Shown one piece after another: positions 1,289 to 30,357 of a stretch of DNA of 32,000 nucleotides; the first letter of the stretch is position 1; every line of letters begins with the position of its first letter. Both the position numbers and the translations under genes were made by a program. The notes under the pieces are model-generated. The model worked only from the letters and a program-made list of their open reading frames with translations, was not told where the DNA came from and did no database searches. Source of the stretch: Psychrobacter sp. DM4 (GTDB lineage: Bacteria > Pseudomonadota > Gammaproteobacteria > Pseudomonadales > Moraxellaceae); assembly GCF_051307035.1 (NCBI RefSeq), contig NZ_CP195536.1, forward strand, positions 1,770,001 to 1,802,000, given 5' to 3'.

Positions 1289-4108
1289 TTATTCTGCGAC
1301 GTCATCATCATTGAGCAAAGCTGCATCAGCTTGATCTTCGGCACGGCCTTCACTAGTGATCTCGTCGTCGTCTTCACCGACAAACTCAGGTACAGGATTT
1401 GGGTTAATATTATCAGAAGCTGGCGCTGGCGCATCTGGGAAATGGTCATAGTGCGGCTGCGTCTGCCACGCAGGTGGCTGGTCGGCATCGATATCGAAGC
1501 TGGAGATGGCGTCTTTGACCAAGCGCATCTCAACCTCGCCTTCATCAGCTAAGCGCTTAAGAGTCGCTACCACGATGTGCGCTGCATCGACATGAAAGAA
1601 GCTACGCAGCTGCTCTCGGGTGTCTGAGCGTCCATAGCCATCAGTACCAAGGGTAGTAAAGGGGCGATTGTCAGGCAGCCAAGCGCGAATTTGCTCTGAG
1701 TAGTTGCGCATGTAGTCGGTCGCCGCCACTACGATACCTTCGTGCGGAGCAAGCTGTTCTGTGATCCATGAGACCTTTTCTTCTTCCATAGGGTGCAGGC
1801 GATTGTAGTCATCACAGGCCATACCATCACGAGTAAGCTCATTGAAGCTGGTCACGCTCCAAACGTTGGAGGTAATATTGAACTCCTCTTTGAGTATTTT
1901 TGACGCTTTTTGTACTTCGCGCAAGATAACCCCTGAGCCTAGCAGTTGTACTTGGCTTGAGCCGTTGTCCTCTAACAGATACATGCCGCGCTTGATACCT
2001 TCTTCTACTCCCTCTGGCATCGCTGGCTGATCGTAATTCTCATTCATTACCGTCAAGTAATAGTAGATACGCTCGCCCTCACCATACATACGGCGCAAGC
2101 CATCATGCATGACTACGGCCAATTCATAACCAAAGCAAGGGTCATAGCTGACGCAATTGGGTACGGTATTGAACAATATTTGCGAATGACCATCTTGATG
2201 CTGCAAGCCCTCACCATTTAATGTTGTACGTCCAGCGGTTGCGCCCAATAAGAACCCTTGCGCCTGACAGTCGCCTGCCGCCCAGGCCAGATCGCCTACT
2301 CGCTGAAAACCAAACATGGAATAGTAAATATATAGCGGTATCATAGGTAGAGCGTTAACCGAGTAACTGGTCGCCAAGGCAATCCAAGCACTCATTGCGC
2401 CTGCTTCATTAATACCTTCTTCTAGCATATGACCATCGATGGCTTCTTTGTATCCCATCAAAGCCTCGCTGTCCTCTGGGGTATACTTCTGTCCTGCCGC
2501 AGAGTAGATACCTAATTGGCGAAACATACCCTCTAGACCAAAGGTGCGCGCCTCATCAGGGACAATAGGCACGACGCGATCTTGAATATCTTTGTTTTTT
2601 AGCATGGCAGATAACAGACGCACGAACACCATAGTCGTCGATTGCTCTTTACCCTTACTACCTTGTAGGACGCGATCAAATATCGATAGCTCTGGAATAT
2701 TAAGTGGGATATGACCACTACGGCGATTGGGCAGGTGACCGCCGAGCGCTTCACGGCGACCTTTGAGATACTTCATCTCTACAGAGTCCTCGGCAGGACG
2801 ATAAAAAGGTAGGGTTTCTAATTGCTCATCGGTAAAGGGTAGATCAAAGCGATCACGGAAGTACAAGAGCGCCTCTTGATCGAGTTTTTTGATCTGATGC
2901 GATTTATTCACCGCTTGTGCTTGGTTTGATAGACCGTAGCCTTTGACAGTCTTTACCAAAATAACAGTCGGCTGACCCTTAGTTTTCATCGCTTCGCTAA
3001 AAGCGGCGTAGACTTTCATCGGATCATGACCACCACGATCTAAACGCGCAATGTCTTTATCAGAGAGCTCATTTGCCATCTCCTCAAGCTCTGGATATTT
3101 TCCAAAAAATTCTTTTCGGACAAATTCAGGAGTACGTGCCTCGTAGAGTTGATACTCGCCATCAACCGCCTCCTCCATACGGTATTTGAGAACACCAGTA
3201 TGATCTTTATCCAGTAGCGTATCCCAATGCCCGCCCCAAACGACCTTGATAACTCGCCAGCCTGCACCGCGGAACACAGATTCTAGCTCTTGGATTATTT
3301 TGCCATTGCCGCGTACGGGGCCATCTAGACGTTGTAGATTACAATTGACGACCCAAATTAGATTATCAAGCTTCTCACGACCTGCCAAGGAGATAGCGCC
3401 CAAACTCTCAGGCTCATCGGTTTCACCATCGCCTAGAAAGGTCCAAATCTTGCGACCCTCAGCTTCAAGTAATTTACGGTTTTCCATATAGCGGTGCACA
3501 TGCGCATGGTAGATCGACATGATGGGGCCAAGACCCATAGATACGGTTGGAAACTGCCAGTAGTCTGGCATCAAGTACGGATGCGGGTAACTTGATAAAC
3601 CTTTGCCGCCCACTTCACGGCGAAAATTATCAAGTTGCTCCTCATCTAAGCGACCCTCTAAATAAGAGCGCGCATAAATACCAGGTGCTGAGTGACCTTG
3701 ATAATAGATCATGTCGCCACCGAAATGATCACTTGCGGCGCGAAAGAAATGATTAAAACCCGTCTCATATAGTGTCGCACTAGAGGCAAAAGTTGCTAAG
3801 TGACCACCCAAATCGTCATCGTTCTTATTTGCTCGCATCACCATCGCAAGGGCATTGTAGCGAATTAAAGCGCGGAGCTTGCGCTCGATAGTCAAGTCAC
3901 CTGGGTACATCGGCTCATCTTCAACGGCGATAGTATTGATGTAGGCCGTATCAAGGCGATTAAAAGGTAAGTCCTCTTGCACCGCCATGTTGTATAGCGC
4001 CTTCAATAAAAACTGCGCGCGGTCTTTGTCAGCATGTTTGATGACCGACTCAAAAGCATCCAGCCACTCTTGAGTCTCTACGCTATCAACATCCTTGTAA
4101 TAATTCAT
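1289..4108 (-). CDS. aceE: Pyruvate dehydrogenase E1 component (homodimeric type)
   Basis: The ORF track gives 1289-4153. I place the start at ATG 4106-4108 (MNYYKDVDSVETQEWLDAFESV) because AAGGA lies ~10 nt upstream. Full-length AceE-like sequence is present (GDGETDEPESLGA, TK-like ThDP-binding regions), followed by a C-terminal acidic extension. Confidence 0.96.
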   Translation of the reverse strand: MNYYKDVDSVETQEWLDAFESVIKHADKDRAQFLLKALYNMAVQEDLPFNRLDTAYINTIAVEDEPMYPGDLTIERKLRALIRYNALAMVMRANKNDDDLGGHLATFASSATLYETGFNHFFRAASDHFGGDMIYYQGHSAPGIYARSYLEGRLDEEQLDNFRREVGGKGLSSYPHPYLMPDYWQFPTVSMGLGPIMSIYHAHVHRYMENRKLLEAEGRKIWTFLGDGETDEPESLGAISLAGREKLDNLIWVVNCNLQRLDGPVRGNGKIIQELESVFRGAGWRVIKVVWGGHWDTLLDKDHTGVLKYRMEEAVDGEYQLYEARTPEFVRKEFFGKYPELEEMANELSDKDIARLDRGGHDPMKVYAAFSEAMKTKGQPTVILVKTVKGYGLSNQAQAVNKSHQIKKLDQEALLYFRDRFDLPFTDEQLETLPFYRPAEDSVEMKYLKGRREALGGHLPNRRSGHIPLNIPELSIFDRVLQGSKGKEQSTTMVFVRLLSAMLKNKDIQDRVVPIVPDEARTFGLEGMFRQLGIYSAAGQKYTPEDSEALMGYKEAIDGHMLEEGINEAGAMSAWIALATSYSVNALPMIPLYIYYSMFGFQRVGDLAWAAGDCQAQGFLLGATAGRTTLNGEGLQHQDGHSQILFNTVPNCVSYDPCFGYELAVVMHDGLRRMYGEGERIYYYLTVMNENYDQPAMPEGVEEGIKRGMYLLEDNGSSQVQLLGSGVILREVQKASKILKEEFNITSNVWSVTSFNELTRDGMACDDYNRLHPMEEEKVSWITEQLAPHEGIVVAATDYMRNYSEQIRAWLPDNRPFTTLGTDGYGRSDTREQLRSFFHVDAAHIVVATLKRLADEGEVEMRLVKDAISSFDIDADQPPAWQTQPHYDHFPDAPAPASDNINPNPVPEFVGEDDDEITSEGRAEDQADAALLNDDDVAE

Positions 4109-4543
4109 CTTGGTCAATCCTTTTTGGGTCTTATCTGTCTGGTGACAGCTCATAGTTAGTATAAAATCTAGTTAAAGTAAAATCGTCATGCTCTTAACAC
4201 AAACCGCAAAAATAATAAATCAAAATAAGCAGTCAATAGTTAAGAGGCTATATCTATCCATTATAGGCACATAGCAGCGAATTGTTTATAGCTTTGAAAA
4301 AATGGTAAAAATACAGGTATTCAGCCAAGAAATGACGAATAGTAATTAGATGAATATTGATAACTTTATGGTTAACTTATACGATCTAAGACCAATTTTT
4401 AGTTGCTAATAAAAGATTGATTTTAAACATTGTTAAGCTTTAATTAAAGTTAAGCTAATGAATTTTTTAATCTAAAGGTGTCAAAAGGGTAAGATTTATT
4501 TTATGATAATAAATACAGATTATTTGATCTACAAGGAAGCGTC
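4109..4543. promoter_or_regulatory. AT-rich divergent intergenic region (aceE promoter to the left, A1 promoter to the right)
   Basis: About 435 nt with no credible ORF and very AT-rich. A -10-like GATAAT at 4505-4510 sits in the context TATTTTATGATAATA, which resembles the TTTGTGATAAT elements at 12246-12256 and 9124-9134. A direct repeat GTTAAGCT occurs at 4432-4439 and 4449-4456. Confidence 0.45.
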
Positions 4544-6613
4544 ATGCAGCTAAATGTTTGTAGTAGACTTATCAAAAATTTGCGTCGTCCAGCTTATATT
4601 GTAGGGATAACCTTACTTACGTTATCTGCACACTCAGCATTTGCTGCCGTTAGCTGCCCTGCTGGTTTCACCTCTGATGAATTCTCAAACTCAGATTATA
4701 CCAATCTTGCTCCGGTGGTCTCACCACCTACTCCACAAAGCAACCAAAATGTTATCGGTATTAAAAGCGAGAGCTACTTGATAGCTTCCAATAGTTTAAC
4801 CACTAGCGGCACTTTAGATACTGGGGGAATAAATAGATATCAATCGGATACTACTGGAGGTGTGCAAGTTTTTCGTTTCTACCAAGACTTTGCCGATAAA
4901 ACGAGTACACGAACCGCGTCTTATACCTTTAGTAATAAATTTTCCAATCAGCCTCAGGCGCTCACTAATGTTGGTATTAGTATTTACGACATAGACACAA
5001 GCTACGTAGGGACAGACTTTGCTGGTAATAGGTATTTCGAGTTTTTTGACCAAGCGACCGTCACAGGGGTTACTAGTGCAGGGACGACGATTAGTCCAGT
5101 CTTACAATCTAAAGGCGCTGGAATTACCAGCATAGCACCTTATCGGCAAACAAATTTGACTAGCAGTGTCAGTTGCGGCGGCTTGAACGACAATTGCAGA
5201 GTTTCATTGTCATTCAACCAGCCTGTTGTAAAAGTAGACATTACTTACGGTAATAATACTGACTTAAATTATTTTGATCAAAGTGATGATGACGGCGATG
5301 GTAATCAATTCAATGATCCTGGCGATCAGCTAGTTGATATAAGATTTGATGGCTATTGTTATCAGCCGCAGCCGCGATTGATTTACACAAAAGCATTGTC
5401 TGACCCTCGCATTATAGATACAGATGAGTTTAGGATTCAGATAACAGATAACGCAAATAATACCTCAGTGACCAGTGGTATCAGTACGACGACGACAGCA
5501 GGAGAAGGTAATACTGTTACTACTGGTACAGGTACAACAGGGACTTTTAGAGTTGATCCTACCAAGACATATACTTTGACCGAGATTGCCTCAGGCACCA
5601 CAAACCTGTCAAATTATAATGCTACTTATACTTGTAGAAGATCAGATGGTACAACAGTGACAACGCTAAATCCAAATAGCCTAAAACTTACTTATGGGGA
5701 CAATTGGACTTGTACCATTACTAATAGTCGCAGTTTTATCTTTTCAGGTATCGTCTTTAACGACAACGGCGGTATTACAGCGAGTAGTGCTGATAGACAG
5801 AACATCTCTTCAACCTTCATCGGTAATGGCAGCTACTTTAACGGAACCTTTGATAGTGCTACTGAATCTGGCATATACGACAACAACTTACAAGTTCGAT
5901 TGACCAACTGTAATGGCACCAACATCGCAACCACCTCGCCCAATCCGCAGACAGTATCGAATGATAATGCCACTAGAGGTCGATATAACTTTATCGTACC
6001 AGCGAGTGCGCTTGCCAATAGCACTAGAGTCTGCGTGGTAGAGAATGAACCAAGCGCTTGGGACTTTACAATAGATACCACACCAGATACGCGCGAGGTC
6101 ACATTGGTTGCCAATGTCTTTGAATACAAAACCGAGAGAAATAGTGCAGGCGCAATCACGCGCAATTTAGATTTTGGTGAAGTTCGGGCTGCAAATGCAG
6201 CGTTAGTACTCATAAAATCTCAATACGTTCACGACTGTAACGCTAGTCTTAATTATCAAAATGTCGGTAGTAGTGAGAATCCAACACAAGGTTTTAGTAC
6301 CAACCCAATTAGTAATATTGAATCTGGAAGGTGTATCGCTTACCGTATTCAAGCGTTTAACCGAGGTCATATAGCGCTACAGCAAGTACGAATAAGTGAT
6401 GAGTTGCAATCTGACCCTGTCGCTTCAGTGTTCAAGCGTCCAGCGCCTCTGTTTATTCCAACCTCAGTCGCCAGTCCAACGGTTGCATACGATACCAATG
6501 GCACTATTCAATCTAATCTGTTTAGTTTGACTGCAACATCAACTACGGCAAGTGTACCGCCTTCAGCGAGGTTGTTTTTCAATACTAAATTTGGTACGAC
6601 TCAATCAAACTGA
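4544..6613 (+). CDS. Secreted multi-domain Ig-like surface protein A1 (putative tip adhesin-like; paralogue of A2)
   Basis: 689-aa ORF with AAGGA 6 nt upstream. Signal peptide ends ...LSAHSAFA|AVSC. Domains by eye: an N-terminal domain bracketed by Cys38 and Cys272; a SpaA/prealbumin-like domain (YTLTE ... NWTCTITN); an SdrD-B-like domain starting FIFSGIVFNDNGGIT; and a C-terminal DUF11-like domain (ALVLIKSQYVHDC...GRCIAYRIQAFNRG...RISDEL). Composition is Thr/Asn/Ser-rich. Confidence 0.85.
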   Translation: MQLNVCSRLIKNLRRPAYIVGITLLTLSAHSAFAAVSCPAGFTSDEFSNSDYTNLAPVVSPPTPQSNQNVIGIKSESYLIASNSLTTSGTLDTGGINRYQSDTTGGVQVFRFYQDFADKTSTRTASYTFSNKFSNQPQALTNVGISIYDIDTSYVGTDFAGNRYFEFFDQATVTGVTSAGTTISPVLQSKGAGITSIAPYRQTNLTSSVSCGGLNDNCRVSLSFNQPVVKVDITYGNNTDLNYFDQSDDDGDGNQFNDPGDQLVDIRFDGYCYQPQPRLIYTKALSDPRIIDTDEFRIQITDNANNTSVTSGISTTTTAGEGNTVTTGTGTTGTFRVDPTKTYTLTEIASGTTNLSNYNATYTCRRSDGTTVTTLNPNSLKLTYGDNWTCTITNSRSFIFSGIVFNDNGGITASSADRQNISSTFIGNGSYFNGTFDSATESGIYDNNLQVRLTNCNGTNIATTSPNPQTVSNDNATRGRYNFIVPASALANSTRVCVVENEPSAWDFTIDTTPDTREVTLVANVFEYKTERNSAGAITRNLDFGEVRAANAALVLIKSQYVHDCNASLNYQNVGSSENPTQGFSTNPISNIESGRCIAYRIQAFNRGHIALQQVRISDELQSDPVASVFKRPAPLFIPTSVASPTVAYDTNGTIQSNLFSLTATSTTASVPPSARLFFNTKFGTTQSN

Positions 6614-6658
6614 TTGATGGCTGCCCTATCATAAGCAGCTTTTGAGATAGCGACATCG

Positions 6659-6697
6659 AAACAGACACATATATCAATAAGAGTGTCTGTTTTGTTC
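6659..6697 (+). terminator. Rho-independent terminator after A1
   Basis: AAACAGACAC (6659-6668) pairs perfectly with GTGTCTGTTT (6683-6692) and runs into TTTTGTT. Confidence 0.6.
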
Positions 6698-6709
6698 TGT
6701 GTGCATACT

Positions 6710-6781
6710 CTTGCATTTCATCCTGATATAACTACCTCTCATACTTTATTGTTAGGCTTTACTTGCGTCTTTGTATAAGAT
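6710..6781 (+). promoter_or_regulatory. Putative A2 promoter with two 21-bp-phased repeat boxes
   Basis: The proximal box ACTACCTCTCA (6731-6741) matches the ACTACCATTCA box of the B2 promoter at 9/11 positions. The distal box CTTGCATTTCA (6710-6720) matches at 6/11 and lies exactly 21 bp upstream. TTTGTATAAGAT (6770-6781, -10-like TATAAG) starts 39 nt after the proximal box, the same geometry as at 9063-9134 and 12185-12256. Confidence 0.45.
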
Positions 6782-6858
6782 TAAACACTCAAAGTAATAT
6801 CATAATTTTGATTCTTTACTTAATAGCTAAAGAGCCAAAGATCATAAGGCGTAACGAT

Positions 6859-8913
6859 ATGCACAATATTCACATCTCTCTGTATACTCGTGTAGCCAAT
6901 ATGCCTACATATCGAGTACTCGTATCGCTTGCCTTTATGATAGGTTTTTTTGGTACTGAAGCTAACGCCAATTTCGAATCTACTGCGACCTCTACAGCTG
7001 CTGCTTGTCCCATAAATCATAAGATGTACTTTATTGGTGCCAACGCCAATGCTCCTGCGTCAACGCCAGACTTTCCCGTAGTGAGCTTACCTCTCAACTG
7101 GACAGCTGGAGACTCTTCGAGAAATTTTACTTTCGCAGAATCTTCAGGAAACAAAACCTTCAATATTAATTTCTCATCGATTGTGGAAAAAAACAATAGT
7201 CAAGGTGCTCCTCCTTTCTATGGGTCTATTAATGGCAGCACATCTTCTGCTATTAACTTGGTTCACGACTCTACATCGACTGTAAATAACCATATTTTAA
7301 ATATTAGTACCAATCGCTCAGTGAGTAAGGCAGGCTATGAAATACAAGATGTAGACTCCTTAACCTCTAATGTTATTATTGGGTATATTGGTTTCTTTCC
7401 AATTCGCGCAGATAGAACACCATATGCAGAACAGATAGACGTATCTGCCAACGGTGGTCGGTTGACATTTAATAGTTTGTTTCATGCTGCTAACAACCCT
7501 GCTCCTAATACCAGTATAGTGACCGCAATTGAAGGTCAGAACTGTTCTACTGGTGAGTGTGATATTGATGCTTCTTGGGGTTACAAAGCTGCAAATAGCG
7601 TCCTAGGATTGAGACATAATAATACGATTAATGAAACCCCTGCTCCACATGCTGTTGGATATTCTAATTTTTATTTTTGTTTAGCACCACCTAAAGTTCT
7701 TGTAAAAAAAGTACTAGCTGGTAACCGTGTCAATGATACTGATACTAATCGAGATCAGTTTGAGCTTAGTATTAACAGAGGAACAACGGTTGTCAATGCG
7801 GTTACCACGACAGGCTCAGGTTCAGCCGTCACGAACAACAACAATCGAAATGCTGTAAGCATAGCTGAAAACACAAGCTATACCATTACTGAACGCGTCA
7901 GAAATGGTACAACGCTTGGTGAGATTGCAAATTATAATGCTACTTATACCTGTACCAATGCGACCACAGGTAGTACCACTGTCATGCCCACTGCAAATAT
8001 GGTATTTAATGCGACTACAAAAACTCGTTCGTTTACGTTGGCTAGTACCAATTTTGGTGATGAGATAACTTGTACCATTACCAACACACCAATCGGCTAT
8101 ACTTTTTCGGGTACTGTATTTGATGATAATGGTGGTATTACAGATAGTGAAGCCAACGCTACTAACGCAGACATTGCTAGTAGCAGTAGCCCTTACGCGA
8201 ATAGACCCAATTATTTTAATGGGGTATTTAATACACCTCAAGAGCTCGGTATTGCTGGCAGTACGGTCAAATTAGTCAACTGTACGGCCCCTAGTACCGT
8301 TTATGCCACTCAAGCAGTATCAACAACGGGGACTTACCAGATAAATGCTTCTGCCGCTACGATAAATAGCAATTCTAATAATATCTGCCTAGTAGAAGAG
8401 CGCGCTGGTACTGATTACCCTATTCGTACCAACGCACCTACTAAGACGGTCAATATAGTCACCAATACCTTTGATTACCCTAATAATAACTTTGGTCGCG
8501 TGATCGCTGCAAACGTCGCCTTGGTGCTCAAAAAGTCTCAATACATCAATAACTGCCCTGCGACACTCAACTACGCTAGTATTGGAGATACCACCAGTCC
8601 ATCGACAGGGTTTAGCTCAGCCTTAGTTGAAAATATCGCACCTGGCAGATGTATCGCCTACAAGATTACAGCGACCAATCGCGCTAATGTCAATATTGAT
8701 AACTTTGTTATGAAAGATATATTACAAAACAAAGGGGTCAACAATGCCATCGTGACGTCAACAATTGCAGCTCCTGCCCCCGCTTCAACAGATTATACGG
8801 CCAACAGCCCTACTATTGGCCAAAATGGTACAATGGAGTCTAAATCCTTTACCTTAAACCCAAGAACCAAACGTGACTTCTATTTCAATACCAAGTACGG
8901 TACCAGTCAATAA
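6859..8913 (+). CDS. Secreted multi-domain Ig-like surface protein A2 (paralogue of A1)
   Basis: The ORF track gives 6763-8913. I prefer ATG 6859 (AAGG 9 nt upstream), with ATG 6901 (MPTYRVLVSLAFMIGFFGTEANA|NFEST) as an alternative. Architecture matches A1: an N-terminal domain from AAACPINH to NFYFCLAPP; a SpaA-like domain (KVLVKKVL...YTITE...EITCTITN); an SdrD-B-like domain (YTFSGTVFDDNGGIT); and a C-terminal DUF11-like domain (ALVLKKSQYINNC...GRCIAYKITATNRA...MKDIL). Confidence 0.85.
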   Translation: MHNIHISLYTRVANMPTYRVLVSLAFMIGFFGTEANANFESTATSTAAACPINHKMYFIGANANAPASTPDFPVVSLPLNWTAGDSSRNFTFAESSGNKTFNINFSSIVEKNNSQGAPPFYGSINGSTSSAINLVHDSTSTVNNHILNISTNRSVSKAGYEIQDVDSLTSNVIIGYIGFFPIRADRTPYAEQIDVSANGGRLTFNSLFHAANNPAPNTSIVTAIEGQNCSTGECDIDASWGYKAANSVLGLRHNNTINETPAPHAVGYSNFYFCLAPPKVLVKKVLAGNRVNDTDTNRDQFELSINRGTTVVNAVTTTGSGSAVTNNNNRNAVSIAENTSYTITERVRNGTTLGEIANYNATYTCTNATTGSTTVMPTANMVFNATTKTRSFTLASTNFGDEITCTITNTPIGYTFSGTVFDDNGGITDSEANATNADIASSSSPYANRPNYFNGVFNTPQELGIAGSTVKLVNCTAPSTVYATQAVSTTGTYQINASAATINSNSNNICLVEERAGTDYPIRTNAPTKTVNIVTNTFDYPNNNFGRVIAANVALVLKKSQYINNCPATLNYASIGDTTSPSTGFSSALVENIAPGRCIAYKITATNRANVNIDNFVMKDILQNKGVNNAIVTSTIAAPAPASTDYTANSPTIGQNGTMESKSFTLNPRTKRDFYFNTKYGTSQ

Positions 8914-8935
8914 TTTAACGTTTTAGACATCCAAA

Positions 8936-8972
8936 AACGCCTATTTAGTTATCCGACTAGATAGGCGTTTTT
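8936..8972 (+). terminator. Rho-independent terminator after A2
   Basis: AACGCCTAT (8936-8944) pairs with ATAGGCGTT (8961-8969) and is followed by a T-run to 8972. Confidence 0.7.
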
Positions 8973-9062
8973 GATTTCGGAAATTTCTTCATACATAGGT
9001 TTCTACCTAAAGCATAGTTTATCTACTTCTCGTCTTGATGAATATTTTCTAGTAATTATGTG

Positions 9063-9134
9063 ATTACCATTCAGTAACTTCAAACCGCCATCTATCACCT
9101 TTTTGATGACTTAATTTTTGCTATTTGTAATGAT
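9063..9134 (+). promoter_or_regulatory. Putative B1-C1 promoter with two 21-bp-phased repeat boxes
   Basis: ATTACCATTCA (9063-9073) matches ACTACCATTCA at 10/11, and ACCGCCATCTA (9084-9094) matches at 7/11. A -35-like ATGACT lies at 9106-9111. TTTGTAATGAT lies at 9124-9134 (TG-n-AATGAT, extended -10-like). By hand, the 31 nt from the -35 element to the -10 element align at 21/31 with 12226-12256. Confidence 0.5.
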
Positions 9135-9276
9135 GCAGGCATCAGAAATACCTCAGTATTTTCACAGACTTATCTCTAGATATTCGTTATTGAATCATAC
9201 TTCTAGTACGTCCCAAGCTATCCAGAATAGCGATATGCATGTGTCTGATCGACAACCCCTTACAAAGGATTTTATT

Positions 9277-9741
9277 ATGCAATATTTTAATCTTTTACGT
9301 ACCACTATATTTGTGGCAGTAGCTTTCACCGTATCGCTAGGCGCTGCTCATGCCGATGACGCTTTGAAGATGAATTTGAGCGCGAATAAAGTCATCAAAA
9401 ATGCTGAGGGCGGTATCTCTTATCTACCCGTGAGCACAGCACCAGCGGGCACTGTTATTCAGTATAAAGCGAACTATACCAATACCATAAGTAAAGACAT
9501 CAATAACGTTATGGTCACGCTACCTATCCCTGCCAACATGACGTTTACAGGTGATGCCTTGCCTGCTAGTGCTCAAGCAAGTATCGATGGCAAGAATTAC
9601 GCAGACATGCCTTTGATGCGCAAAGTCGATGGCAAGCTAGTCAAGATCCCATTATCTGAATACCGTACGCTACGCTGGAATATCAAATTACTACCTGCTA
9701 ACAAGTCTGCTGCTGTGGCGTTAAATACCAAAGTTAGCTGA
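9277..9741 (+). CDS. Small secreted single-domain DUF11-like protein B1 (154 aa)
   Basis: The ORF track gives 9118-9741. I place the start at ATG 9277 because AAAGGA lies 7 nt upstream and a clean signal peptide follows (MQYFNLLRTTIFVAVAFTVSLGAAHA|DDALKM). A single Ig-like domain is present (GTVIQYKANYTNT...VTLPIPANM). About 80% identical to B2 over the mature protein (103/128, hand count). Confidence 0.85.
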   Translation: MQYFNLLRTTIFVAVAFTVSLGAAHADDALKMNLSANKVIKNAEGGISYLPVSTAPAGTVIQYKANYTNTISKDINNVMVTLPIPANMTFTGDALPASAQASIDGKNYADMPLMRKVDGKLVKIPLSEYRTLRWNIKLLPANKSAAVALNTKVS

Positions 9742-9810
9742 TAAAAGCTCTACTATCATTTTCAACTTATATCACTAACTATTTATTTATTTATCGTCTT
9801 GGAGCATTTT

Positions 9811-11856
9811 ATGAAAGCAGCAACCTTTAAACATAGCTTGATCGCTGTTGGCGTTACTGCAGCATTAGGTATCTCTACTAGTGCCTTAGCTACTAACACT
9901 ACTAGCGGTACGACCACCACTAACGTAGATATTAAAAACATTGCAACAGCAAACTATGACATCGCTGGTGTCAAACAGACAGAGGTGAAGTCTAACGAAG
10001 TTATCGTTCGAGTATCAGAGAAATTATCGTTCTCTTTGGTTGCAAATAACGAAGATGGTAATCCTGGTGATACTATCAATGAAAAACTAGAAGTTGCTCC
10101 TAACGGTTTTGCGGTATTTAACCACACGTTGACCAACACTGGTAACCGTAATGACAACTATACGCTCAATCTTGCCAATGTTACTGGTGATGATGCAGAT
10201 TACGATTTGACCGCATCTACGGTTACCTACTCTTTATACAATGCAGGACAGACTCCTGGTACCGATACGCCTGTATCTACGCAATCTAATGTCCCTGTGA
10301 GTACGCTCAATGGAACTAGTTTCGCATTAGAGGCAGGTCAGTTTGTCAAGTTCACTATTAATGCCAAGACTAAAGATAACAAAGGCGGCAATAGACAAAA
10401 TTTGAGATTAACAGCAACTAGCTCTTTATTGCCAACTGCCAGCAAAACATTGACTAACACTGACAAATCAGTGACAACACTACCAACATTTAGTATTGTT
10501 AAAACAGTTTTGAACTCGTTAGATCTGAATAATGCTAACGATACTGCTACCTATCAGATAGTAATCAAGAACCCAACGACTGACTATTCTGCTAATGCAA
10601 CTGATATTACTATTACAGATAACTTGCCAGCGGGTCTGCTTATAGCATCAGCACTAACGACGAATAGCATTGTTGTTAGTGGTAGTGCGACTAAAGGTGC
10701 GCTCTCTCAAACTGATAAAGGTTTTGAGTTAAAAGGAGCAAACCTTCCTGTGGGTGATAGTATCACTATTAACTTTACGGTCAAAAAAGACCCTAATGCT
10801 GCCCTAGCAAACAATGCCTTGAACCATGTTAAAGTCACTGATGATTTGGACAATAACCCAGCTACTGATAACACTTTGATCGATAGCACTGACAGTACGG
10901 TTGAAAACGTCAACCAATTCTATCCTGTCAATGATACCGACTTTACCAACGGTACCAATGCAGATGGTACTAACGGCAATGACTCCACTCAGCCACTAGC
11001 GACTATTAAACGTGAGCTGAAATTGACCAATCCTACTATAAAAGAGATCGCTCCGACTTCAGGTACAGCAGGTCAGGTTTTACATCAAACTCTTATTACT
11101 AACAGTGGTCAAAACACTGAAGGCAATGTGACAGGCGGCTTAACCTTTACTATTACAGATAACGACAATGGTACGCCAGATGCGGTAAACGTCGTACCTG
11201 GTTCTGTAACCCTGACCTATGATCCAGATGGTCCTGGTTCTGCGCCAGCGCAAACCGCAGTCGGCATTACCCCTAATAACAGTGGCGTATATGATATCAA
11301 GACCGCCCTGCCTAATGGTATAGCGCCTACCGGTACGGTTAATATCAGTTATAAGGTCTCATCAGAAAATGCTGAAATTGGTATCTCTGAAGATACTGTA
11401 GTGAGACTGACTGCTAGTGGTAAAGGCGCGCCTACAGTTGCTCCAGTAACTGATAGAACAGATGTTAAAGGTATTACTCTCGTCAAGAGCCAAGCTTTAG
11501 ACGCTGCGTGTGACGGTACTGCTGATACTGCCTTTAGTAGCTCTGCTGATCCACTTGCGGCAACGCCCGGTCAATGCGTAATCTATCAAATCGCGGCCAA
11601 GAACACCTCTACTACTGAGCGTGGATTCAATATACAGAATCTAGTCATCTCAGATGCGACAGCCAACTTCGTTGCGACTGCTGATTACAGAGGAAACACT
11701 TTTGCCTCTACAACTAGCACAGGTTCTGGTACAACCGTCACATCTGCTGCAGCGCGTAACGCTGACGAAACAGCTATTAGTACTACTATTAACCCACTAG
11801 TACCGCAGGGAACAGCGACAATGAAGTTTTCAGTGAAGATTAAAACGAATCGTTAG
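9811..11856 (+). CDS. Secreted multi-DUF11-repeat protein C1 (putative fibre shaft subunit)
   Basis: The ORF track gives 9799-11856. I place the start at ATG 9811 with GGAG 6 nt upstream. Signal peptide ends ...GISTSALA|TNTT. Canonical DUF11/TIGR01451-type motif is present (TATYQIVIKNPT...ATDITITDNLPAGLLIAS). There is an N-terminal NIATANY...SNEVIVRV hairpin and a C-terminal Cys-pair domain (ITLVKSQALDAAC...GQCVIYQIAAKN). Confidence 0.85.
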   Translation: MKAATFKHSLIAVGVTAALGISTSALATNTTSGTTTTNVDIKNIATANYDIAGVKQTEVKSNEVIVRVSEKLSFSLVANNEDGNPGDTINEKLEVAPNGFAVFNHTLTNTGNRNDNYTLNLANVTGDDADYDLTASTVTYSLYNAGQTPGTDTPVSTQSNVPVSTLNGTSFALEAGQFVKFTINAKTKDNKGGNRQNLRLTATSSLLPTASKTLTNTDKSVTTLPTFSIVKTVLNSLDLNNANDTATYQIVIKNPTTDYSANATDITITDNLPAGLLIASALTTNSIVVSGSATKGALSQTDKGFELKGANLPVGDSITINFTVKKDPNAALANNALNHVKVTDDLDNNPATDNTLIDSTDSTVENVNQFYPVNDTDFTNGTNADGTNGNDSTQPLATIKRELKLTNPTIKEIAPTSGTAGQVLHQTLITNSGQNTEGNVTGGLTFTITDNDNGTPDAVNVVPGSVTLTYDPDGPGSAPAQTAVGITPNNSGVYDIKTALPNGIAPTGTVNISYKVSSENAEIGISEDTVVRLTASGKGAPTVAPVTDRTDVKGITLVKSQALDAACDGTADTAFSSSADPLAATPGQCVIYQIAAKNTSTTERGFNIQNLVISDATANFVATADYRGNTFASTTSTGSGTTVTSAAARNADETAISTTINPLVPQGTATMKFSVKIKTNR

Positions 11857-11888
11857 AGAAATATCGTAGTAAGTATCAGTATCTAGCG

Positions 11889-11925
11889 CTCATAGGAACA
11901 TAAACGTGCCTATGAGTGTTTTTTT
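11889..11925 (+). terminator. Rho-independent terminator after C1
   Basis: CTCATAGG (11889-11896) pairs with CCTATGAG (11909-11916) and is followed by TGTTTTTTT. Confidence 0.75.
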
Positions 11926-12184
11926 GTGTATAATATTTGCAAGTTGATGTGTCAGCAAAAGCAGCTACGGATCGAAGATCCTAATTCTAACGCTAGTAAA
12001 TCGTCTTATTATTCAACATTATAGAAATATTAAGTCTTTAAGCGAATATGCGTAAGTAAAGTTATTTCTTATTTTCAGAGCATTTACCCTCATTACTTGT
12101 ATACGATAACTTGATTACATGTTTCACATAAATGATTGTTATTGTTAGTTTTTTACCAAAAAAATGCATGATAATCATATTCTT

Positions 12185-12256
12185 ACTACCATTCAACTAC
12201 TACTAACTACCATTCATCTTTTATGTAGTGACGGTATGTTACCTATTTGTGATAAT
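12185..12256 (+). promoter_or_regulatory. Putative B2-C2 promoter with two exact 21-bp-phased repeat boxes
   Basis: An exact 11-mer, ACTACCATTCA, occurs at 12185-12195 and 12206-12216. A -35-like GTGACG lies at 12228-12233. After a 17-bp spacer comes the extended -10 element TGTGATAAT (TG 12248-12249, GATAAT 12251-12256). Confidence 0.55.
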
Positions 12257-12373
12257 ACAACCATAAGAGTTGTATCTATCCTCAATTGTCCACATTTACT
12301 TATTGCCATTCGGTATGGCACAGATGTTGCACCAATGACCACGACTAGCAATGAATTGAACAAGGACAAAGAT

Positions 12374-12838
12374 ATGAACCTCTCTAACTTATTACGTACT
12401 ACCTTACTGGCAACTTTAGCAAGCCTTACTTTATCAGGTATTGCTCACGCTGATGACGCTCTAAAAATGGAGCTAACAGCAAATAAAGTCACTAAGGCTG
12501 TAGATGGCAAAGTAAGTTACGCACCTGTTAGTACCGCGCCAGCAGGTACCGTGATTCAGTACAAAGCGAACTATACCAATACAATTAATAAAGACATTAA
12601 CGATCTAGCCGTTATCTTACCTATCCCAACTAATATGGCATTCAACGGTGAAGCTAGTCCTGCTAGCGCACAGGCAAGCATCGATGGCAAGAACTACGCC
12701 GATATGCCACTGATGCGCAAGGTGGATGGCAAGATGATTAAGATTCCATATTCTGAATATCGTACATTACGTTGGAATATCAAATTACTACCCGCTAAGA
12801 AGTCTGCCGCTGTGGCACTGAACACCATTGTCGAATAG
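12374..12838 (+). CDS. Small secreted single-domain DUF11-like protein B2 (154 aa)
   Basis: The ORF track gives 12164-12838. I place the start at ATG 12374 with AAGGA 7 nt upstream. Signal peptide is MNLSNLLRTTLLATLASLTLSGIAHA|DDALKM. Same length as B1 and ~80% identical to it. Confidence 0.85.
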   Translation: MNLSNLLRTTLLATLASLTLSGIAHADDALKMELTANKVTKAVDGKVSYAPVSTAPAGTVIQYKANYTNTINKDINDLAVILPIPTNMAFNGEASPASAQASIDGKNYADMPLMRKVDGKMIKIPYSEYRTLRWNIKLLPAKKSAAVALNTIVE

Positions 12839-12882
12839 TTCGTTTTTGGACTACTCATTTATACCCTTAGGAGAATTACCGT

Positions 12883-14904
12883 ATGAAACCTAACTTATTT
12901 AAATACTCAGTACTGACCGTCGGTATTGTCACTGCTATGGGTATTACTAGCACTGCTAATGCTGACGATGTCACTTATAGTGAAGACAATGCCTTTGTTG
13001 TAAAGAACATCGCCACTGCGACCTACAATGTCACAGGTAATGATACTCAGCAAACTGCTGAATCGAATGAGGTGACTATTACTGTCAATGAGACAGGTGC
13101 GTTCAGCTTGATTGCCACCGTTGCTGATGGTAGCCCTGGTGACGATGAAAACGAAGATATCGATGTCAACCCAGTATCAGGTGCTCCTGTCGAGTTTACT
13201 CATACCTTAACGAACGATGGTAACATCACAGATACCTATACTATAGATATCTCAAATGAAAATGGCGATGACTTTGATTATGATATTGCCAACAGCACGA
13301 TTACATATCAGATCCGTGATATCGACGGTAACCCCGTTGGCGCTGTTGAGCCTGTCCTTAATGGCGGTACTATAGAGCTTGATCCAGGTCAGTCTGCTGA
13401 TATCGTTATCAGCGCGGTTACAGATCCTAATGATGATCGCGTGATTGGTGATAATGGTATATTAACGGTCACCTCGACCAGTAAATATCTAACTGATCTT
13501 GGCCAGCCTGCAGTCGCTACTAACACGGATAATGCTGTTACCGTAACGCCTATCTATGCGATTACGAAGTCAGCGCAAAGCAACCTTGGCACTCAGATTA
13601 TCGATTTAAATAACGCCAATGCCTACGTTGACTACACGATTACCGTGTTGAACGAAGGTACCGCTGACGGTACTGATGTTACTATTACAGATGATCTGCC
13701 TGCTGGCCTAATTGCCATACAAAACGGCGAAGCCAATTATGTGGCACCTACTACTACTGGTACAGGCACTCCTGCTGTCTCAAGCGATGGTAGAACGGTT
13801 ACTTTAATTGGTCAAAATATCGATCAAAACGATACAATCACGATTACCTTCCGCGCCAGACCTGCTGACAATGCAACAGTCGGTAGTGACTTTGTCAACT
13901 TTGCGGTAGTGACTGATGATTTAGACGACGATGGTGACATTGATCTAACGGATAGTTCAGGTGACGCTGCTGATAACAATACAACAGAAGATAACTTTGA
14001 AGATCCAACCAACCCTGATATCGGTGAAGATAATAACGATAATGCGACTGTTACACCAAGGAATCAGACGCGTTCTTTGACCATTACTGATGATGAAAAT
14101 AAAGAAGTCGCTCTACAAAGCACTGATAATGTGTACACTTATACCATTACCAATGCTGGTACAGATGTCACTGAAGCAGACGCTGAAGATGAAGTCTTCT
14201 TCACAGTGACACCAACTATCGACATCAACGAGATCGATACGGTTACTGTATTTGTAGATGCTAATGGTGATGGCGTATTCGATGCTGGTGAGACCGTATT
14301 GACTCCTAATGCTAGTGGTCAGTATGACTTAAACGATGCGGTTAACGCAGGCCTTGCTCCTAGTGAATCCGTGACTATCGGTGTCGTTGTCAATACCAAT
14401 GGTTCAGGCAGTAACAACGGTCAAGATAGCGATATTGGTAAGTTTGAGGAAATCGTTATCACAGTTCTACCACAAACAGTAGTAGACGGTACACCTGCTC
14501 CTGTCGATGTTAGCGCTGAGTCAACGACAACGATGGAAGGTATTGATCTATTCAAATTCCAAGCCGCTGCTGCTTGTGACACCAATCCGACCTCTATTAC
14601 GAACTGGGTAACGACTAATGTGGTGGCTACTGCTGATCAGTGTGCATTCTACAAATTAGAAGCTACTAATACTTTCTCTAATACAGCAATTAATAGTATT
14701 GTTCTATCGGATACTCTAGTTGATACGCTGACTTATCAAAATGGTAGCTTCTCTTCTGAGACGTCAAACAACTCAGATGACGCGACATCGACTATCTCTG
14801 GCCAGAGTGTCAGTGGTACGTTTGCTACTTTGACAGGAACAGAAACAGGTACTATCTATTTCTCTGCCAAGATCTCTCAGACGGGTACTAATAGCACACC
14901 ATAA
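12883..14904 (+). CDS. Secreted multi-DUF11-repeat protein C2 (acidic paralogue of C1; putative fibre shaft subunit)
   Basis: 673-aa ORF with an AGGAG RBS. Signal peptide ends ...GITSTANA|DDVT. DUF11 motif is present (YVDYTITVLNEGTADGTDVTITDDLPAGLIAI). There is an N-terminal NIATATY...SNEVTITV hairpin and a C-terminal Cys-pair domain (IDLFKFQAAAAC...DQCAFYKLEATN). Composition is very Asp/Glu-rich. Confidence 0.85.
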   Translation: MKPNLFKYSVLTVGIVTAMGITSTANADDVTYSEDNAFVVKNIATATYNVTGNDTQQTAESNEVTITVNETGAFSLIATVADGSPGDDENEDIDVNPVSGAPVEFTHTLTNDGNITDTYTIDISNENGDDFDYDIANSTITYQIRDIDGNPVGAVEPVLNGGTIELDPGQSADIVISAVTDPNDDRVIGDNGILTVTSTSKYLTDLGQPAVATNTDNAVTVTPIYAITKSAQSNLGTQIIDLNNANAYVDYTITVLNEGTADGTDVTITDDLPAGLIAIQNGEANYVAPTTTGTGTPAVSSDGRTVTLIGQNIDQNDTITITFRARPADNATVGSDFVNFAVVTDDLDDDGDIDLTDSSGDAADNNTTEDNFEDPTNPDIGEDNNDNATVTPRNQTRSLTITDDENKEVALQSTDNVYTYTITNAGTDVTEADAEDEVFFTVTPTIDINEIDTVTVFVDANGDGVFDAGETVLTPNASGQYDLNDAVNAGLAPSESVTIGVVVNTNGSGSNNGQDSDIGKFEEIVITVLPQTVVDGTPAPVDVSAESTTTMEGIDLFKFQAAAACDTNPTSITNWVTTNVVATADQCAFYKLEATNTFSNTAINSIVLSDTLVDTLTYQNGSFSSETSNNSDDATSTISGQSVSGTFATLTGTETGTIYFSAKISQTGTNSTP

Positions 14905-14923
14905 TTACTGATTTATGATCAAA

Positions 14924-14960
14924 GGAGTTTTCTTAATCAGATTAAGAAAACTCCCCTTTT
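14924..14960 (+). terminator. Strong hairpin with a weak T-tract between C2 and D (leaky terminator or attenuator)
   Basis: A perfect 14-bp stem, GGAGTTTTCTTAAT (14924-14937) with ATTAAGAAAACTCC (14941-14954), closes a 3-nt loop and is followed by CCTTTTA. Confidence 0.55.
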
Positions 14961-15009
14961 ACCCTTTATACATTAACTATGTTTTCTTTCATAAGTAGGA
15001 TTACCGAAT

Positions 15010-18000
15010 ATGCGTCAAGCTGTATTTTCGACTCGTAACCCTCGCTACCGTACAGGCGCGTTGACTGCGCTGACTACGTTGGCAGCGTCGATGCTACTTA
15101 TGCAAGCAAATATCGCTCATGCTGAAGATGGCAAGGGTGTCACCACGATCAACAACATCGCGCAAACCAGCTACACAGTTGGCAACAGCAATCAGACGAG
15201 CACGTCTAACCAAGTTAGCTTTAAATCATTAACCCTGCCTCAATATGAGGTTAGCCTTACTCAGCCTGATCTACAAACTATCAGTGCGGGTGATACTGTT
15301 CAGTGGGTCAATGTACTATCGAATAATGGCACCTTTGATGAAACCGTTACTCTAAGCTTTGACTATCCAAGTACGCTATCTAACTTTGCGGTATACCAAG
15401 ACCTTAACGAAAACGGCATCATCGATGATAGTGATAGACAAGTTATACTCGATGGTTTGAGCGCTCAAATTGCCTTGGGTCAAGCCGAAAGTATCCAGTT
15501 TATCGTTCAAGCTTTGAGTGATCGTAACGCTGCTAGTGGCGATACTGCTGAGATTAAGATTGGCGCTGTCGTTGTCGAAGATGATTCTGTAACAGCAGCA
15601 GCGACTGACCGCCTCATCATTGTCAAGCCGAGTATTGGCTTTACAGACGATAGGTTTGAAGGGCCAAAAGATACGACACAAATAAGCTCAAACGTATACG
15701 TAGAAGCCAATTACGCGCAGTGTAATGTGCAGCCCAACGCAAAAGACCAAGTATGGGTGACAATTACCTCAGAATTGACAGGTGACAAATACTCTCTAAA
15801 AGCAATAGAGACGGGCGACAACACGGGTAAATACCAAGTATCAGCGCCGACTCAAAATAATGCCAATAAGATCGATGACCAGATTATTCAGACTTTGAAA
15901 GGCGATTCGCTGACCGTCACACTTGATGCTTGTATTACACCTGATGGCGGTCGCGTTGATATCATAGACAATATCAGCAACAACATCGATATTGTTGATC
16001 AATCTGCGAGCCTACAAGTTCAAAAAGAAGGCGATATCAAATCAGCTGATCTTGGTGATTACGTCAACTACAGTATTAATGTCACTAATAATGGTGCTGC
16101 AACCGCGTTCGATGTTGAGCTAAAAGATGCGTTGCCACGTGGTTTCGACTATGTCAAAGGTAGCGCACGCGTCAACCAAGGGGCTAATAGCGCAGATAGC
16201 GATATTGATATCAGTCAAGCTCAAACTACTGAGTTCAAGGTAGACGGCAAGTATCAAGTTCTAAACCTAGGTAACTTAGCTGCGGGTGAGACGAAGAGTG
16301 TCACTTATCGCGTTCTTATTGGCGCGTCAGCATTAGGTGGCGACGGTATTAACCGTGCTACCGCAGTCGCTCGTGATGATAATGACAATGTATTTGCATC
16401 CATGGAATCACAGTGGTCTGTTGATGTTAGCCGTGGTCTTATGAATACTGATGGTATTATCATTGGTAAAGTCTATCACGACATCAACCGAGACGGCATC
16501 CAGCAAAAAGAAGACGGCGAGCTTGGTGTCGCAGGTGTACGCATCTACATGGAGAACGGTAACTTTATCGTGACCGATCCTGAAGGTAAGTATAACTTTT
16601 ATGGTATCAGTGCCAAGACCCACGTATTAAAAGTCGATCGTACAACTATTCCTGTCGCAAGTGAGCTCATCACTCAAAGTAACCGCAACGCTGGAGATGC
16701 TGGTAGCCGCTTCGTTGATCTCAAATACGGCGAGTTACATCGCGCTGATTTCGCTATTGTTGGCGGTATGAGCGATAGCACTGAAACTCTTAACGCTGAG
16801 CTGGTTGCCCGTAGCAAAAGTATTAGCGCTAAGAACGATACCTTAGAGCAAGCGGTTAAAAGCAAGCTCGATTTAGAGCCTATCTATGATCGCGACTATG
16901 ATGACAACGTCGATGCTACTGGCTGCAAATCTAACGATGTACTCGATAAAGGTATCAAATGCGACTCTGCTATTGTCAACGAATTAGCGATACCTAGCGC
17001 TAATCGTATCAATATGGATGTCAAAAAAGTCGTCCAACCTAAAGAAAAAGTACTAGAAGAGTACCTAAAAGAAGTTGATAACAATAATGTTGCGTTTATT
17101 AATCTAAGTAGCGATCAACAGCTTGCTTCATATAAGCAGATGGTCCAAGTACAAGCGCCATTAGGTTCTAACTTTACCCTGTATGTGAATGGCAAAGCCG
17201 TATCAGCAGAACAGATCGGTAAAACGGCTGAACAAGAAAAACAAAACGTTACCGCGTTTGATTATTACGCTGTTGATTTACAGCGTGGTCGTAATACGCT
17301 CCGCGGCGTTGCCACTGATATCAATGGCAAGACGATTTCTGAGCAGTCCATCAATGTGACTACGCCTGATAGCTTGCAGGCGATCAACTACCGTACTCAG
17401 GATGGCTTAGTAGAAGCTGATGGCCTGAGCGAATATCAGATCGTCGTTAGTCTAAAAGATCGTGACAATCGTCCTTATGTTGCCTCAACACCGATCACTA
17501 TTGATACCAATATTGGTCGCATAAACTTACCTGATGGCAGTAAGGATAAAGCTGGTACGCAAGTGATGGTCAATGGTGGCGAGATACTAATTCCTGTCAT
17601 TGCACCAAGCGTACCTGGTAAAGGTCAGCTCGTTATCGACACTGGCAGCAGCAAACAAGTTATCGATTTACAGTTTACTCCTAAGCTGCGTCCGCTGATT
17701 GCGGTTGGTATCGTAGAAGGTGCAATATCACTCAAAGACTTCGATGGCGGCAGCATCACTGATGCTCAGGGCGCTTTTGAGCAAGAGCTAAATGAGATTG
17801 CAGGCGGTGACGATTACTCAGCGACTGGCCGTGCGGCGATGTTCCTCAAAGGTAAAGTTCGCGGTGATTATCTACTGACGCTCGCTTATGATAGCGACAA
17901 AAAAGGCGAGCGCTTGTTTCGTGATATCGAGCCTGGCGAGTACTACCCTGTCTATGGTGACTCATCGGCTAAAGGTTTTGACGCTCAATCAACGAGCAAA

Positions 18001-29367: not shown

Positions 29368-29368
29368 C

Positions 29369-30322: not shown

Positions 30323-30357
30323 CCTGTTTTTTTTATTGCCTCAGGAACCTTGCTGTC

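Follow-up and report, generated by a model that had tools for sequence, protein, structure and literature searches.

A C-terminal module shared by secreted proteins of a Psychrobacter operon is probably the acceptor half of a split CLIPPER domain

The gene cluster A1-A2-B1-C1-B2-C2-D-E is encoded on the plus strand of the genome of the gammaproteobacterium Psychrobacter sp. DM4, between aceE and a TetR gene, and all of its proteins are annotated as 'hypothetical'. It was analysed within a window of 32,000 nucleotides (nt) of contig NZ_CP195536.1, and coordinates given below without a locus name are those of the window. The results indicate that the C-terminal module shared by A1, A2, C1 and C2 is probably the acceptor half of a split CLIPPER domain of the immunoglobulin (Ig) type, a conclusion for which all evidence is computational. 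As judged from its sequence, the module is a divergent, truncated CLIPPER (DUF11, CnaA-like) domain that comprises strands A to F, and the strands that it lacks directly follow the predicted signal peptides of C1, C2 and D. On balance, and with some reserve, we favour an assembly in which these proteins join head-to-tail by strand complementation, possibly with an intermolecular Lys-Asn isopeptide bond, to form a fibre with A at the tip, C(n) as the shaft and D as the anchor, and with B as a candidate cap or chaperone.

A1, A2, C1 and C2 all terminate in one homologous domain of ∼120–137 amino acids (aa) with an invariant pair of cysteines, as a preliminary description of this DNA had proposed. 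Thirteen columns are invariant across the four aligned segments (including L4, K6, Q8, C13, C45, Y48, A52, N54, D67, F127 and K130), and they cover the Lys of an L-x-L-x-K-x-Q motif, both Cys, a Y-x-x-x-A-x-N strand and one Asp. The four proteins had been taken to be otherwise different. They are indeed divergent, especially in the N-terminal halves of the A family, which are very diverse, but A1 and A2 are paralogues (36% over 448 aa), as are C1 and C2 (32% over the full length). The carriers of the module are therefore two families rather than four independent proteins, and the real question is how the A-type and C-type modules are related. A profile of 88 A-type sequences aligned with a profile of 61 C-type sequences at an hhalign probability of 98.7% (E 3.8e-16, 121 columns). 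In these 149 modules, which were drawn from related loci, the Lys and the second Cys are present in 149/149, and the first Cys and the Asp in 148/149 (one module has Glu for Asp). Two details of the preliminary description were corrected. The frame of the A1 domain starts at 6200 instead of 6199, and the spacing between the cysteines, previously put at 17–26 residues, measures 31, 31, 21 and 21 residues in A1, A2, C1 and C2, with a range of 19–37 residues across the families. In C1 and C2, the cysteines of the module are the only ones in the protein.

An exhaustive profile search of 1.84 billion representatives returned 2567 proteins at E ≤ 1e-3, of which 150 were listed. Among the matches listed, the single matches to the full profile (∼70 of the 150; the complete proteins have 446–1173 aa) all lie 0–19 residues from the C-terminus, and giant tandem-repeat proteins match repeatedly, only at the core profile positions ∼85–175. 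The last strand of the A-type modules (6575–6610 in A1 and 8881–8910 in A2) contains a near-invariant YFNTKYG motif in which the Asn is found in 88/88 sequences, and C-type modules have S/A/K/R at this position. The Asn of this motif could make a tip-specific contact or take part in an alternative intramolecular bond.

DUF11 (PF01345) was renamed CLIPPER in a 2025 survey, which described a CnaA-like fold and an intramolecular isopeptide bond that is formed between a Lys of the first strand and an Asn of the penultimate strand and is catalysed by an Asp (PMC12617251). The triad was determined experimentally in the crystal structure 9IFR from Acinetobacter silvestris (K715/D748/N806); isopeptide bonds are absent from many CLIPPER domains, and the bonds covered by the survey are only the intramolecular ones within complete domains (PMC12617251). 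A general CLIPPER profile of 176 columns was assembled from 284 repeats, which came from 65 giant proteins. The hhalign match to this profile was 95.8% for the C-type module (E 7.7e-9) and 94.4% for the A-type module (E 9e-8), which identifies the shared domain as a divergent relative of CLIPPER. In Pfam searches with the isolated modules, A1 and A2 matched only DUF7507/CLIPPER_2, at 19.9–20.1 bits (cut-off 27), and C1 and C2 matched nothing; PF01345 was passed by internal domains of C2 and D. Protein D had been described as lacking the domain. It has no C-terminal copy, but it does contain a complete internal CLIPPER domain (aa 335–460, nt 16012–16389; PF01345, E 1.7e-13), and its N-terminus carries the strands that are absent from the module. 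The internal domain aligns to 9IFR with equivalents of K715, D748 and N806.

The alignment of the C-type module to the CLIPPER profile runs no further than column 122 of the 176 template columns, so that the 'i-N-x-A-t' strand with the isopeptide Asn is not reached. In a structure predicted with AlphaFold2 (AF2) for the isolated A1 module (predicted local distance difference test score, pLDDT, 91.1), the secondary structure likewise ends at strand F. This model had no match in the PDB at E ≤ 1e-3 in a Foldseek search. Searching the PDB by sequence, with either the module profile or the predicted barrel of D as the query, also gave no match. In an hmmalign alignment with 9IFR, the module Lys falls in the K715 column and the module Asp in the D748 column. 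The isopeptide Asn is missing from C-type modules and is carried by the N-terminal extensions, in which it occupies the N806 column. A further feature of the modules of the Psychrobacter clade is an inserted loop of 19–37 residues between strands A and B, which is closed by the Cys pair.

Directly after the predicted signal peptide, C1, C2 and D carry the strands that the module lacks, with the motif h-x-N-x-A-x-A-x-Y followed by S-N-x-V-x-V (Table 1). The sequences that follow the predicted cleavage site are ...VDIKNIATANYDI...SNEVIVRV in C1, ...FVVKNIATATYNV...SNEVTITV in C2 and ...TTINNIAQTSYTV...SNQVSFKS in D, and each extension then runs into an apparent strand A of the next complete domain. 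This register matches that of tandem CLIPPER arrays, where each repeat is preceded by the last two strands of the one before. The conservation of the motif was analysed in a genome scan that used A-type module sequences as the only query and covered the best 80 of 116 relatives, all from Psychrobacter; the scan is therefore biased towards A-type modules of this genus. In these 80 related loci, the donor motif is present in 73/73 full-length open reading frames (ORFs) of C and in 62/62 D ORFs with an intact N-terminus. A hidden Markov model of the motif matched 0/91 A ORFs and no B or E ORF.

The fit between the module and the extensions was examined by appending every 44-aa window of a protein to its own module and scoring the product against the CLIPPER profile. 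Scores were expressed as the gain over the better of the two parts, because the raw score is confounded by windows that match the profile by themselves. In both C proteins the N-terminal extension gave the largest gain of all windows: +5.6 bits in C2 (99th percentile, 2.9), where the match was extended from column 123 to 159, and +7.5 bits in C1 (99th percentile, 4.5). Taking C1 and C2 together, the profile match lengthens from column ∼122 to 137–159. The next-best windows were the true last strands of internal CLIPPER domains, and the extension of D also scored above the 99th percentile. At the level of profiles, 33 chimeras of module and extension scored 59.2 over 130 columns versus 53.2 over 93 columns for the modules alone, and controls with the reversed extension and with 20 column-shuffled extensions scored 52.7–53.9. 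AF2 folded a chimera of the C2 module and the C2 extension with a mean pLDDT of 83.8 and a predicted template modelling score of 0.80; the block means of the appended strands were 82–89, and the linker was below 50. In a Foldseek search of the PDB with this chimera, 37 matches were obtained at E ≤ 1e-3. The top matches were CnaA-type isopeptide domains of pilins (BcpA with TMq 0.58–0.64, SpaD, Cna and EbpB), and 9IFR was found at E 8e-4.

In the proposed assembly, the subunits would be exported by Sec, and disulfides would then form in the periplasm. A C or D protein would insert its N-terminal extension in trans into the module at the C-terminus of an A or C protein and complete the fold of that module, which would bring the donor Asn beside the Lys and Asp of the acceptor. 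The junction may then lock through a self-catalysed Lys-Asn isopeptide bond. Since the acceptor Lys and Asp and the donor Asn have been kept amid 30–60% identity, such a self-catalysed intermolecular lock is plausible. A, with an acceptor only and a variable head, would form the tip, and C, which has both donor and acceptor, would be the polymerisable shaft subunit. D, which combines a donor with a C-terminal region that we infer to be an outer-membrane β-barrel, would be the base anchor and perhaps an export pore.

The position of B in this scheme is suggested by its acceptor-like sequence. B1 and B2 had been described as carrying a Cys-free version of the module; a Cys-free relative is indeed present, on weaker evidence than for the A and C modules, with an hhalign match of 89% (E 2.3e-6) to the CLIPPER profile and only P ∼0.003 in direct comparison with the A or C domains. 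B1 likewise terminates after strand F (...AAVALNTKVS). Among the small proteins of the operon, B is the best conserved (81–88% identity), and the Asp column is occupied by Leu in 60/60 sequences. Because it has Leu for Asp and no Cys, B would bind a donor strand only non-covalently, which makes it a candidate periplasmic cap or chaperone. Such a role, with reversible capping or chaperoning of donor strands, would be the least certain element of the assembly.

The gene order in related genomes ties the module to D. B, C and D lie directly downstream in 59 of the 80 loci, mostly in the minimal order A-B-C-D-E. Three of the 80 loci are interrupted by contig ends, and 18 contain orphan A genes, in which the module is present but no B, C, D or E is found within 10 kb (L020, L029, L033, L036–L039, L041–L046, L050, L053, L062, L064 and L081). 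For fifteen of the 18 orphans, another listed locus of the same genome holds a full operon, and their distribution suggests that orphan A genes encode exchangeable tip proteins that are used in trans.

Homologues of the D barrel, with 34–47% identity over its whole length, were identified in Burkholderiaceae, Ramlibacter, Steroidobacter, Aquirhabdus and a metagenome-assembled genome of Gemmatimonadales, and their annotation goes no further than 'outer membrane protein' or 'DUF11 domain-containing'. Three distant operons (L085, L089 and L090) comprise a B-like gene, a C-like gene with a donor motif and a truncated module with Lys and Asp, and a D gene with a donor motif. L085 and L088 encode an A-like protein whose module is without the Cys loop; in L085, the C-like protein contains a single Cys. 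Among distant D homologues with an intact signal peptide, a donor-like motif is present in 6/6 (five with Asn, one with Glu). The distant operons thus mark the Cys pair as an embellishment of some lineages and the split architecture as the conserved feature.

In three distant loci, the D homologue is split into two ORFs that overlap by 4 nt (L086, 5385–13240; L087, 1–13189; L089, 7047–14344). The upstream ORF encodes a passenger rich in CLIPPER/SdrD_B domains, which exceeds 4238 aa in L087. The downstream ORF encodes a barrel of ∼1060–1080 aa with its own signal peptide in L086 and L087, and in L089 a product of 1447 aa with no evident signal peptide. Many of the matches to the D barrel are also ∼1090 aa long, so passenger and barrel may be either fused or separate. 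Protein E aligned in BLASTP with the N-terminal half of an OmpA-family protein that is encoded after the D homologue in distant operons (E-value 8e-11, 27% over 141 aa). E-like or OmpA-family partners occur at 13252–14391 in L086, 13186–14169 in L087 and 7949–8659 in L090. A partner that is E-like or OmpA-fused therefore seems to be a conserved accessory of the system and perhaps provides a link to peptidoglycan.

The preliminary description had likened the module to the C-terminal domains (CTDs) of the type IX secretion system (T9SS) and had offered a recognition tag as an alternative to the donor-strand model. What the two have in common is an Ig-like module of ∼100 aa at the end of diverse secreted proteins. 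An Ig-like tag that is complete and self-sufficient, is recognised by D or another factor for export or attachment, is maybe cleaved after transport and involves no strand exchange would agree with the extreme C-terminal position of the domain, which is invariable among the matches listed, with its presence on A proteins with very diverse N-terminal halves, with the strong linkage to D and with the confident prediction of the isolated domain. Orphan A genes distant from the operon would also fit cargo that uses the machine in trans. We nevertheless consider such a tag improbable. The host is Psychrobacter and not a member of Bacteroidota, the flanking genes are not those of a T9SS, and no T9SS CTD family was matched: Por_Secre_tail and TIGR04183 were absent from Pfam/NCBIfam scans, even at E ≤ 10 for the isolated domains. 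The domain is instead homologous to a structural stalk domain (CLIPPER/DUF11), and the invariant isopeptide Lys and Asp would be needless in a disposable tag. Its last two strands are absent from the domain itself and present at the N-termini of C and D, not A, and B is little more than the module, with no cargo. These features would suit a retained structural junction rather than a cleaved signal. Because the module ends before the Asn-bearing strand, and C1, C2 and D carry this strand at their N-termini, the evidence favours the donor-strand model instead of the tag. Two elements of the earlier proposal hold: the conserved terminal module is common to divergent proteins, above all those of the A family, and it is linked to D, both by the operons and by the genomes in which the orphans reside. 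The module was not found to be widespread in proteins unlinked to D, so this link stands. The module is plausibly the element that attaches A and C proteins to D, and it may have an additional role in recognition by D.

Several points weigh against strand complementation with a covalent lock. The scheme offers no route for A and C across the outer membrane. The gains in the window test are modest (5–8 bits), and similar gains come from some strands of the D barrel region (aa ∼1158–1164, within aa ∼1153–1217, window 18466–18660), which score like the true extension and are likely a false positive that limits the specificity of the test. The contrast between the isolated module and the chimera in Foldseek compares different proteins (A1 and C2). 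The chimera alignment contains three distinct donors, all derived from the window, and the placement by AF2 is not driven by covariation; AF2 readily pairs strand-prone peptides with open sheet edges, and the isolated A1 module is already folded in its model and may be stable alone. The donor profile by itself aligns weakly with the broad CLIPPER profile (hhalign P 0.046) and gave no hhalign alignment with a narrow profile of D-internal CLIPPER domains. Pfam scans of single chimeras, and likewise of the N-terminal peptides alone, yielded no CLIPPER match because single sequences are too divergent. In addition, hhalign places the invariant Asn of the A-type FNTKYG motif on the Asn strand, with low confidence, and A-type modules possibly form an intramolecular bond with this residue. 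Some of these points would suit a different reading, in which the module is a divergent terminal stalk domain, the N-terminal motif belongs to the first domain of its own protein, and the proteins are independent adhesins or cell-surface proteins co-regulated with D; the A type would possibly be stabilised by an intramolecular Lys-Asn bond through the FNTK Asn. This would account for the confident AF2 model of the isolated domain, the Asn in the last A-type strand (88/88) and its low-confidence placement, as well as the weak statistics of the donor alignment. It is hard to reconcile with the C-type modules, which have S/A/K/R at the Asn position and yet retain invariant Lys and Asp, and with the segment after the motif, which already starts with strand A; domain 1 also has a full set of strands of its own. 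Moreover, the motif stands in the exact register that precedes strand A of tandem CLIPPER repeats, the chimera acquires the signature of the CnaA fold, and a distribution in which A is acceptor only, C is both and D is donor only is hard to explain otherwise. We therefore give little credence to independent stalk domains.

A narrower question is whether complementation would be covalent. The subunits could associate in chaperone-usher style without a bond, with Lys, Asp and Asn as a structural inheritance from CLIPPER. Many CLIPPER domains have no isopeptide bonds (PMC12617251), BsaA oligomers without the bond remain resistant to sodium dodecyl sulfate (PMC11580942), one distant D homologue has Glu for the donor Asn, and binding by B, if any, proceeds without Asp. 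We regard a purely non-covalent junction as doubtful but worth serious attention. The near-complete retention of Lys and Asp in the 149 modules and the conservation of the donor Asn amid such divergence argue against it, all three residues fall in the experimentally defined isopeptide columns of 9IFR, and other Ig-like domains of these same proteins have lost residues of the triad (e.g. domain 1 of C2, which is without the strand-A Lys).

The split architecture combines features of several known systems. In chaperone-usher pili (type 1 and P pili), each Ig-like subunit is short of a C-terminal strand and receives it from the next subunit, whose N-terminal extension fills the gap. The proposed assembly would follow the same logic: A would correspond to the tip adhesin, with a variable head and an acceptor but without an extension, and as in these pili one operon encodes a small conserved accessory of the Ig-like type together with a large barrel of the outer membrane. 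Here, however, the donor would contribute two strands instead of one, the CnaA-like fold could be locked covalently, B would present not a strand but a groove, and the barrel protein D is itself equipped with a donor extension as well as a long passenger of Ig-like domains. Pfam/NCBIfam scans of A–E identified no family of the PapD_N/C, Usher or Fimbrial kind, and membership of the classical chaperone-usher systems was rejected. In SpyTag/SpyCatcher, a peptide with one residue of the triad docks as a strand in a truncated Ig-like domain that holds the other two, and an isopeptide bond forms spontaneously. That pair is a man-made split of CnaB-type domains with Lys and Asp, whereas the split considered here would be natural, of the CnaA type with Lys and Asn, and would serve polymerisation. 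Sortase pilins (BcpA, SpaD and EbpB) are the best structural matches of the complemented module, and the A proteins contain SpaA_3 domains; in these pilins the inter-subunit link is an enzyme-made Thr-Lys bond and not strand insertion, and the host here is a diderm. A and C have no LPXTG motif and stop after the module (...FNTKFGTTQSN and ...KIKTNR), and there is no sortase in the window, so they were not assigned to the sortase pilins.

The CLIPPER adhesins (PF01345; CLIPPER_2/DUF7507; 9IFR) share with the module the core G-x-x-x-x-Y-x-I-x-x-x-N ... v-x-v-x-D-x-l and the Lys and Asp columns. The complemented chimera matches their CnaA-like fold, and disulfides are frequent in proteobacterial CLIPPER members. 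The known domains are complete in one chain and their bond is intramolecular, whereas the present module is terminal and truncated after strand F, with the Asn strand on another polypeptide. Its disulfide closes the inserted A-B loop, and in CLIPPER a CTTC motif lies in the last strand. BsaA of Clostridium perfringens, a member of the TasA family, builds sortase-independent fibres by 'donor-strand exchange and lock', in which a donor Asn and a recipient Lys/Glu form a split triad that locks the donor strand (PMC11580942). The arrangement of an Asn on an N-terminal donor strand with Lys and an acid in the recipient is the same, here by alignment to the 9IFR columns. BsaA belongs to an unrelated family, however, and is a Gram-positive homopolymer with Glu as the acid and with no outer-membrane barrel, tip or cap subunits; no TasA/camelysin family was matched by the cluster proteins in Pfam scans. 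Archaeal threads (Saci_0406) are assembled by donor-strand complementation through N-terminal tails, with proposed intermolecular isopeptide bonds (PMC9715654). Their bond links the α-amino group of Asp24 to Asn57 of subunit n+2, as opposed to the Lys and Asn of adjacent subunits in the bond proposed here, and host (archaeal) and protein family are different. Papers on haloarchaeal tafi and the Litorilinea grappling hook, which came up in searches for 'DUF11', concern unrelated assemblies.

No description of a Gram-negative split-isopeptide or CLIPPER pilus was found in the literature searched. The ingredients are already known, i.e. donor-strand complementation, CnaA/CLIPPER isopeptide domains and the split triad of BsaA, and there is a substantial chance that their combination here represents a distinct class of Gram-negative fibre. 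The fuller proposal of a previously unrecognised class, with two-strand insertion, isopeptide-locked junctions, a covalent tether of the fibre to the N-terminus of D, D as both pore and anchor and B as a reversible cap, and with a range that the D family would extend to Burkholderiales, Steroidobacter and others, is more tentative, and we place it somewhat short of an even chance. If true, it would add a further route of pilus building in diderms, which would unite donor-strand logic with Gram-positive covalent robustness without a sortase or a PapD/usher pair. It would also give a function to widespread 'hypothetical' or 'DUF11' operons and to terminal half-CLIPPER domains, which are missed by surveys that count complete domains only, and the acceptor module and its donor peptide of ∼40 aa would be natural ligation pairs for protein engineering.

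The features of the cluster are listed in Table 1. Pfam scans identified SpaA_3 in A1 and A2, DUF11 (CLIPPER) in C2 and D, and SdrD_B in D.

Table 1. Genes of the cluster, acceptor modules and candidate donor extensions, in window coordinates
Feature	Position	Strand	Description
A1, whole gene	4544–6613	+	Secreted; variable N-terminal half, SpaA_3 domain, acceptor module; without donor extension; proposed tip subunit
A1, acceptor module	6200–6610	+	Lys558 (nt 6215–6217), Asp619 (nt 6398–6400), Cys pair 31 residues apart; end ...RLFFNTKFGTTQSN
A2, whole ORF	6763–8913	+	Architecture as A1; true start probably downstream of TTG at 6763
A2, acceptor module	8515–8910	+	Lys591, Asp652; end ...DFYFNTKYGTSQ
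B1	9277–9741	+	154 aa per NCBI; single truncated CLIPPER-like domain, no Cys, Leu for catalytic Asp
C1, whole ORF	9799–11856	+	Donor extension, Ig-like/CLIPPER domains, acceptor module; proposed shaft subunit
C1, mature N-terminal extension (candidate donor strands)	9892–10020	+	TNTTSGTTTTNVDIKNIATANYDIAGVKQTEVKSNEVIVRVSE; donor Asn47 at nt 9937–9939
C1, acceptor module	11473–11853	+	Lys563, Asp619; end ...MKFSVKIKTNR
B2	12374–12838	+	Paralogue of B1 (74% identity), features as B1
C2, whole gene	12883–14904	+	Architecture as C1; internal CLIPPER domain aa 244–357 with its own Lys/Asp/Asn triad
C2, mature N-terminal extension (candidate donor strands)	12964–13092	+	DDVTYSEDNAFVVKNIATATYNVTGNDTQQTAESNEVTITVNE; donor Asn42 at nt 13006–13008
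C2, acceptor module	14542–14901	+	Lys558, Asp610; end ...IYFSAKISQTGTNSTP
D	15010–20313	+	1767 aa: signal peptide, donor extension, Ig-like passenger, SdrD_B domain, ∼890-aa C-terminal region
D, mature N-terminal extension (candidate donor strands)	15124–15228	+	EDGKGVTTINNIAQTSYTVGNSNQTSTSNQVSFKS; donor Asn49 at nt 15154–15156
E	20450–21409	+	Conserved operon member, present in 46 loci

The starts that the ORF program assigned to A2, B1, C1 and B2 (6763, 9118, 9799 and 12164) lie well upstream of the likely true starts. For B1 the start at nt 9277 is that of NCBI; B2 probably starts at 12374 and C1 at Met5. The flanking genes in the window encode AceE, the TetR regulator, an EEP nuclease, GlpK and TolC/HlyD proteins. 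The last of these form a plus-strand group downstream of the cluster (27703–31521), which comprises a TolC-family outer-membrane factor, a BrkB-like membrane protein and an HlyD-family adaptor, and which resembles an efflux or type I-like system; a link to the fibre operon is not evident. The G+C content is 0.36–0.45 in the operon (window 4001–15000) and 0.46–0.50 in the flanking housekeeping genes. This lower G+C content, together with the position between aceE and the TetR regulator, is compatible with horizontal acquisition of the operon.

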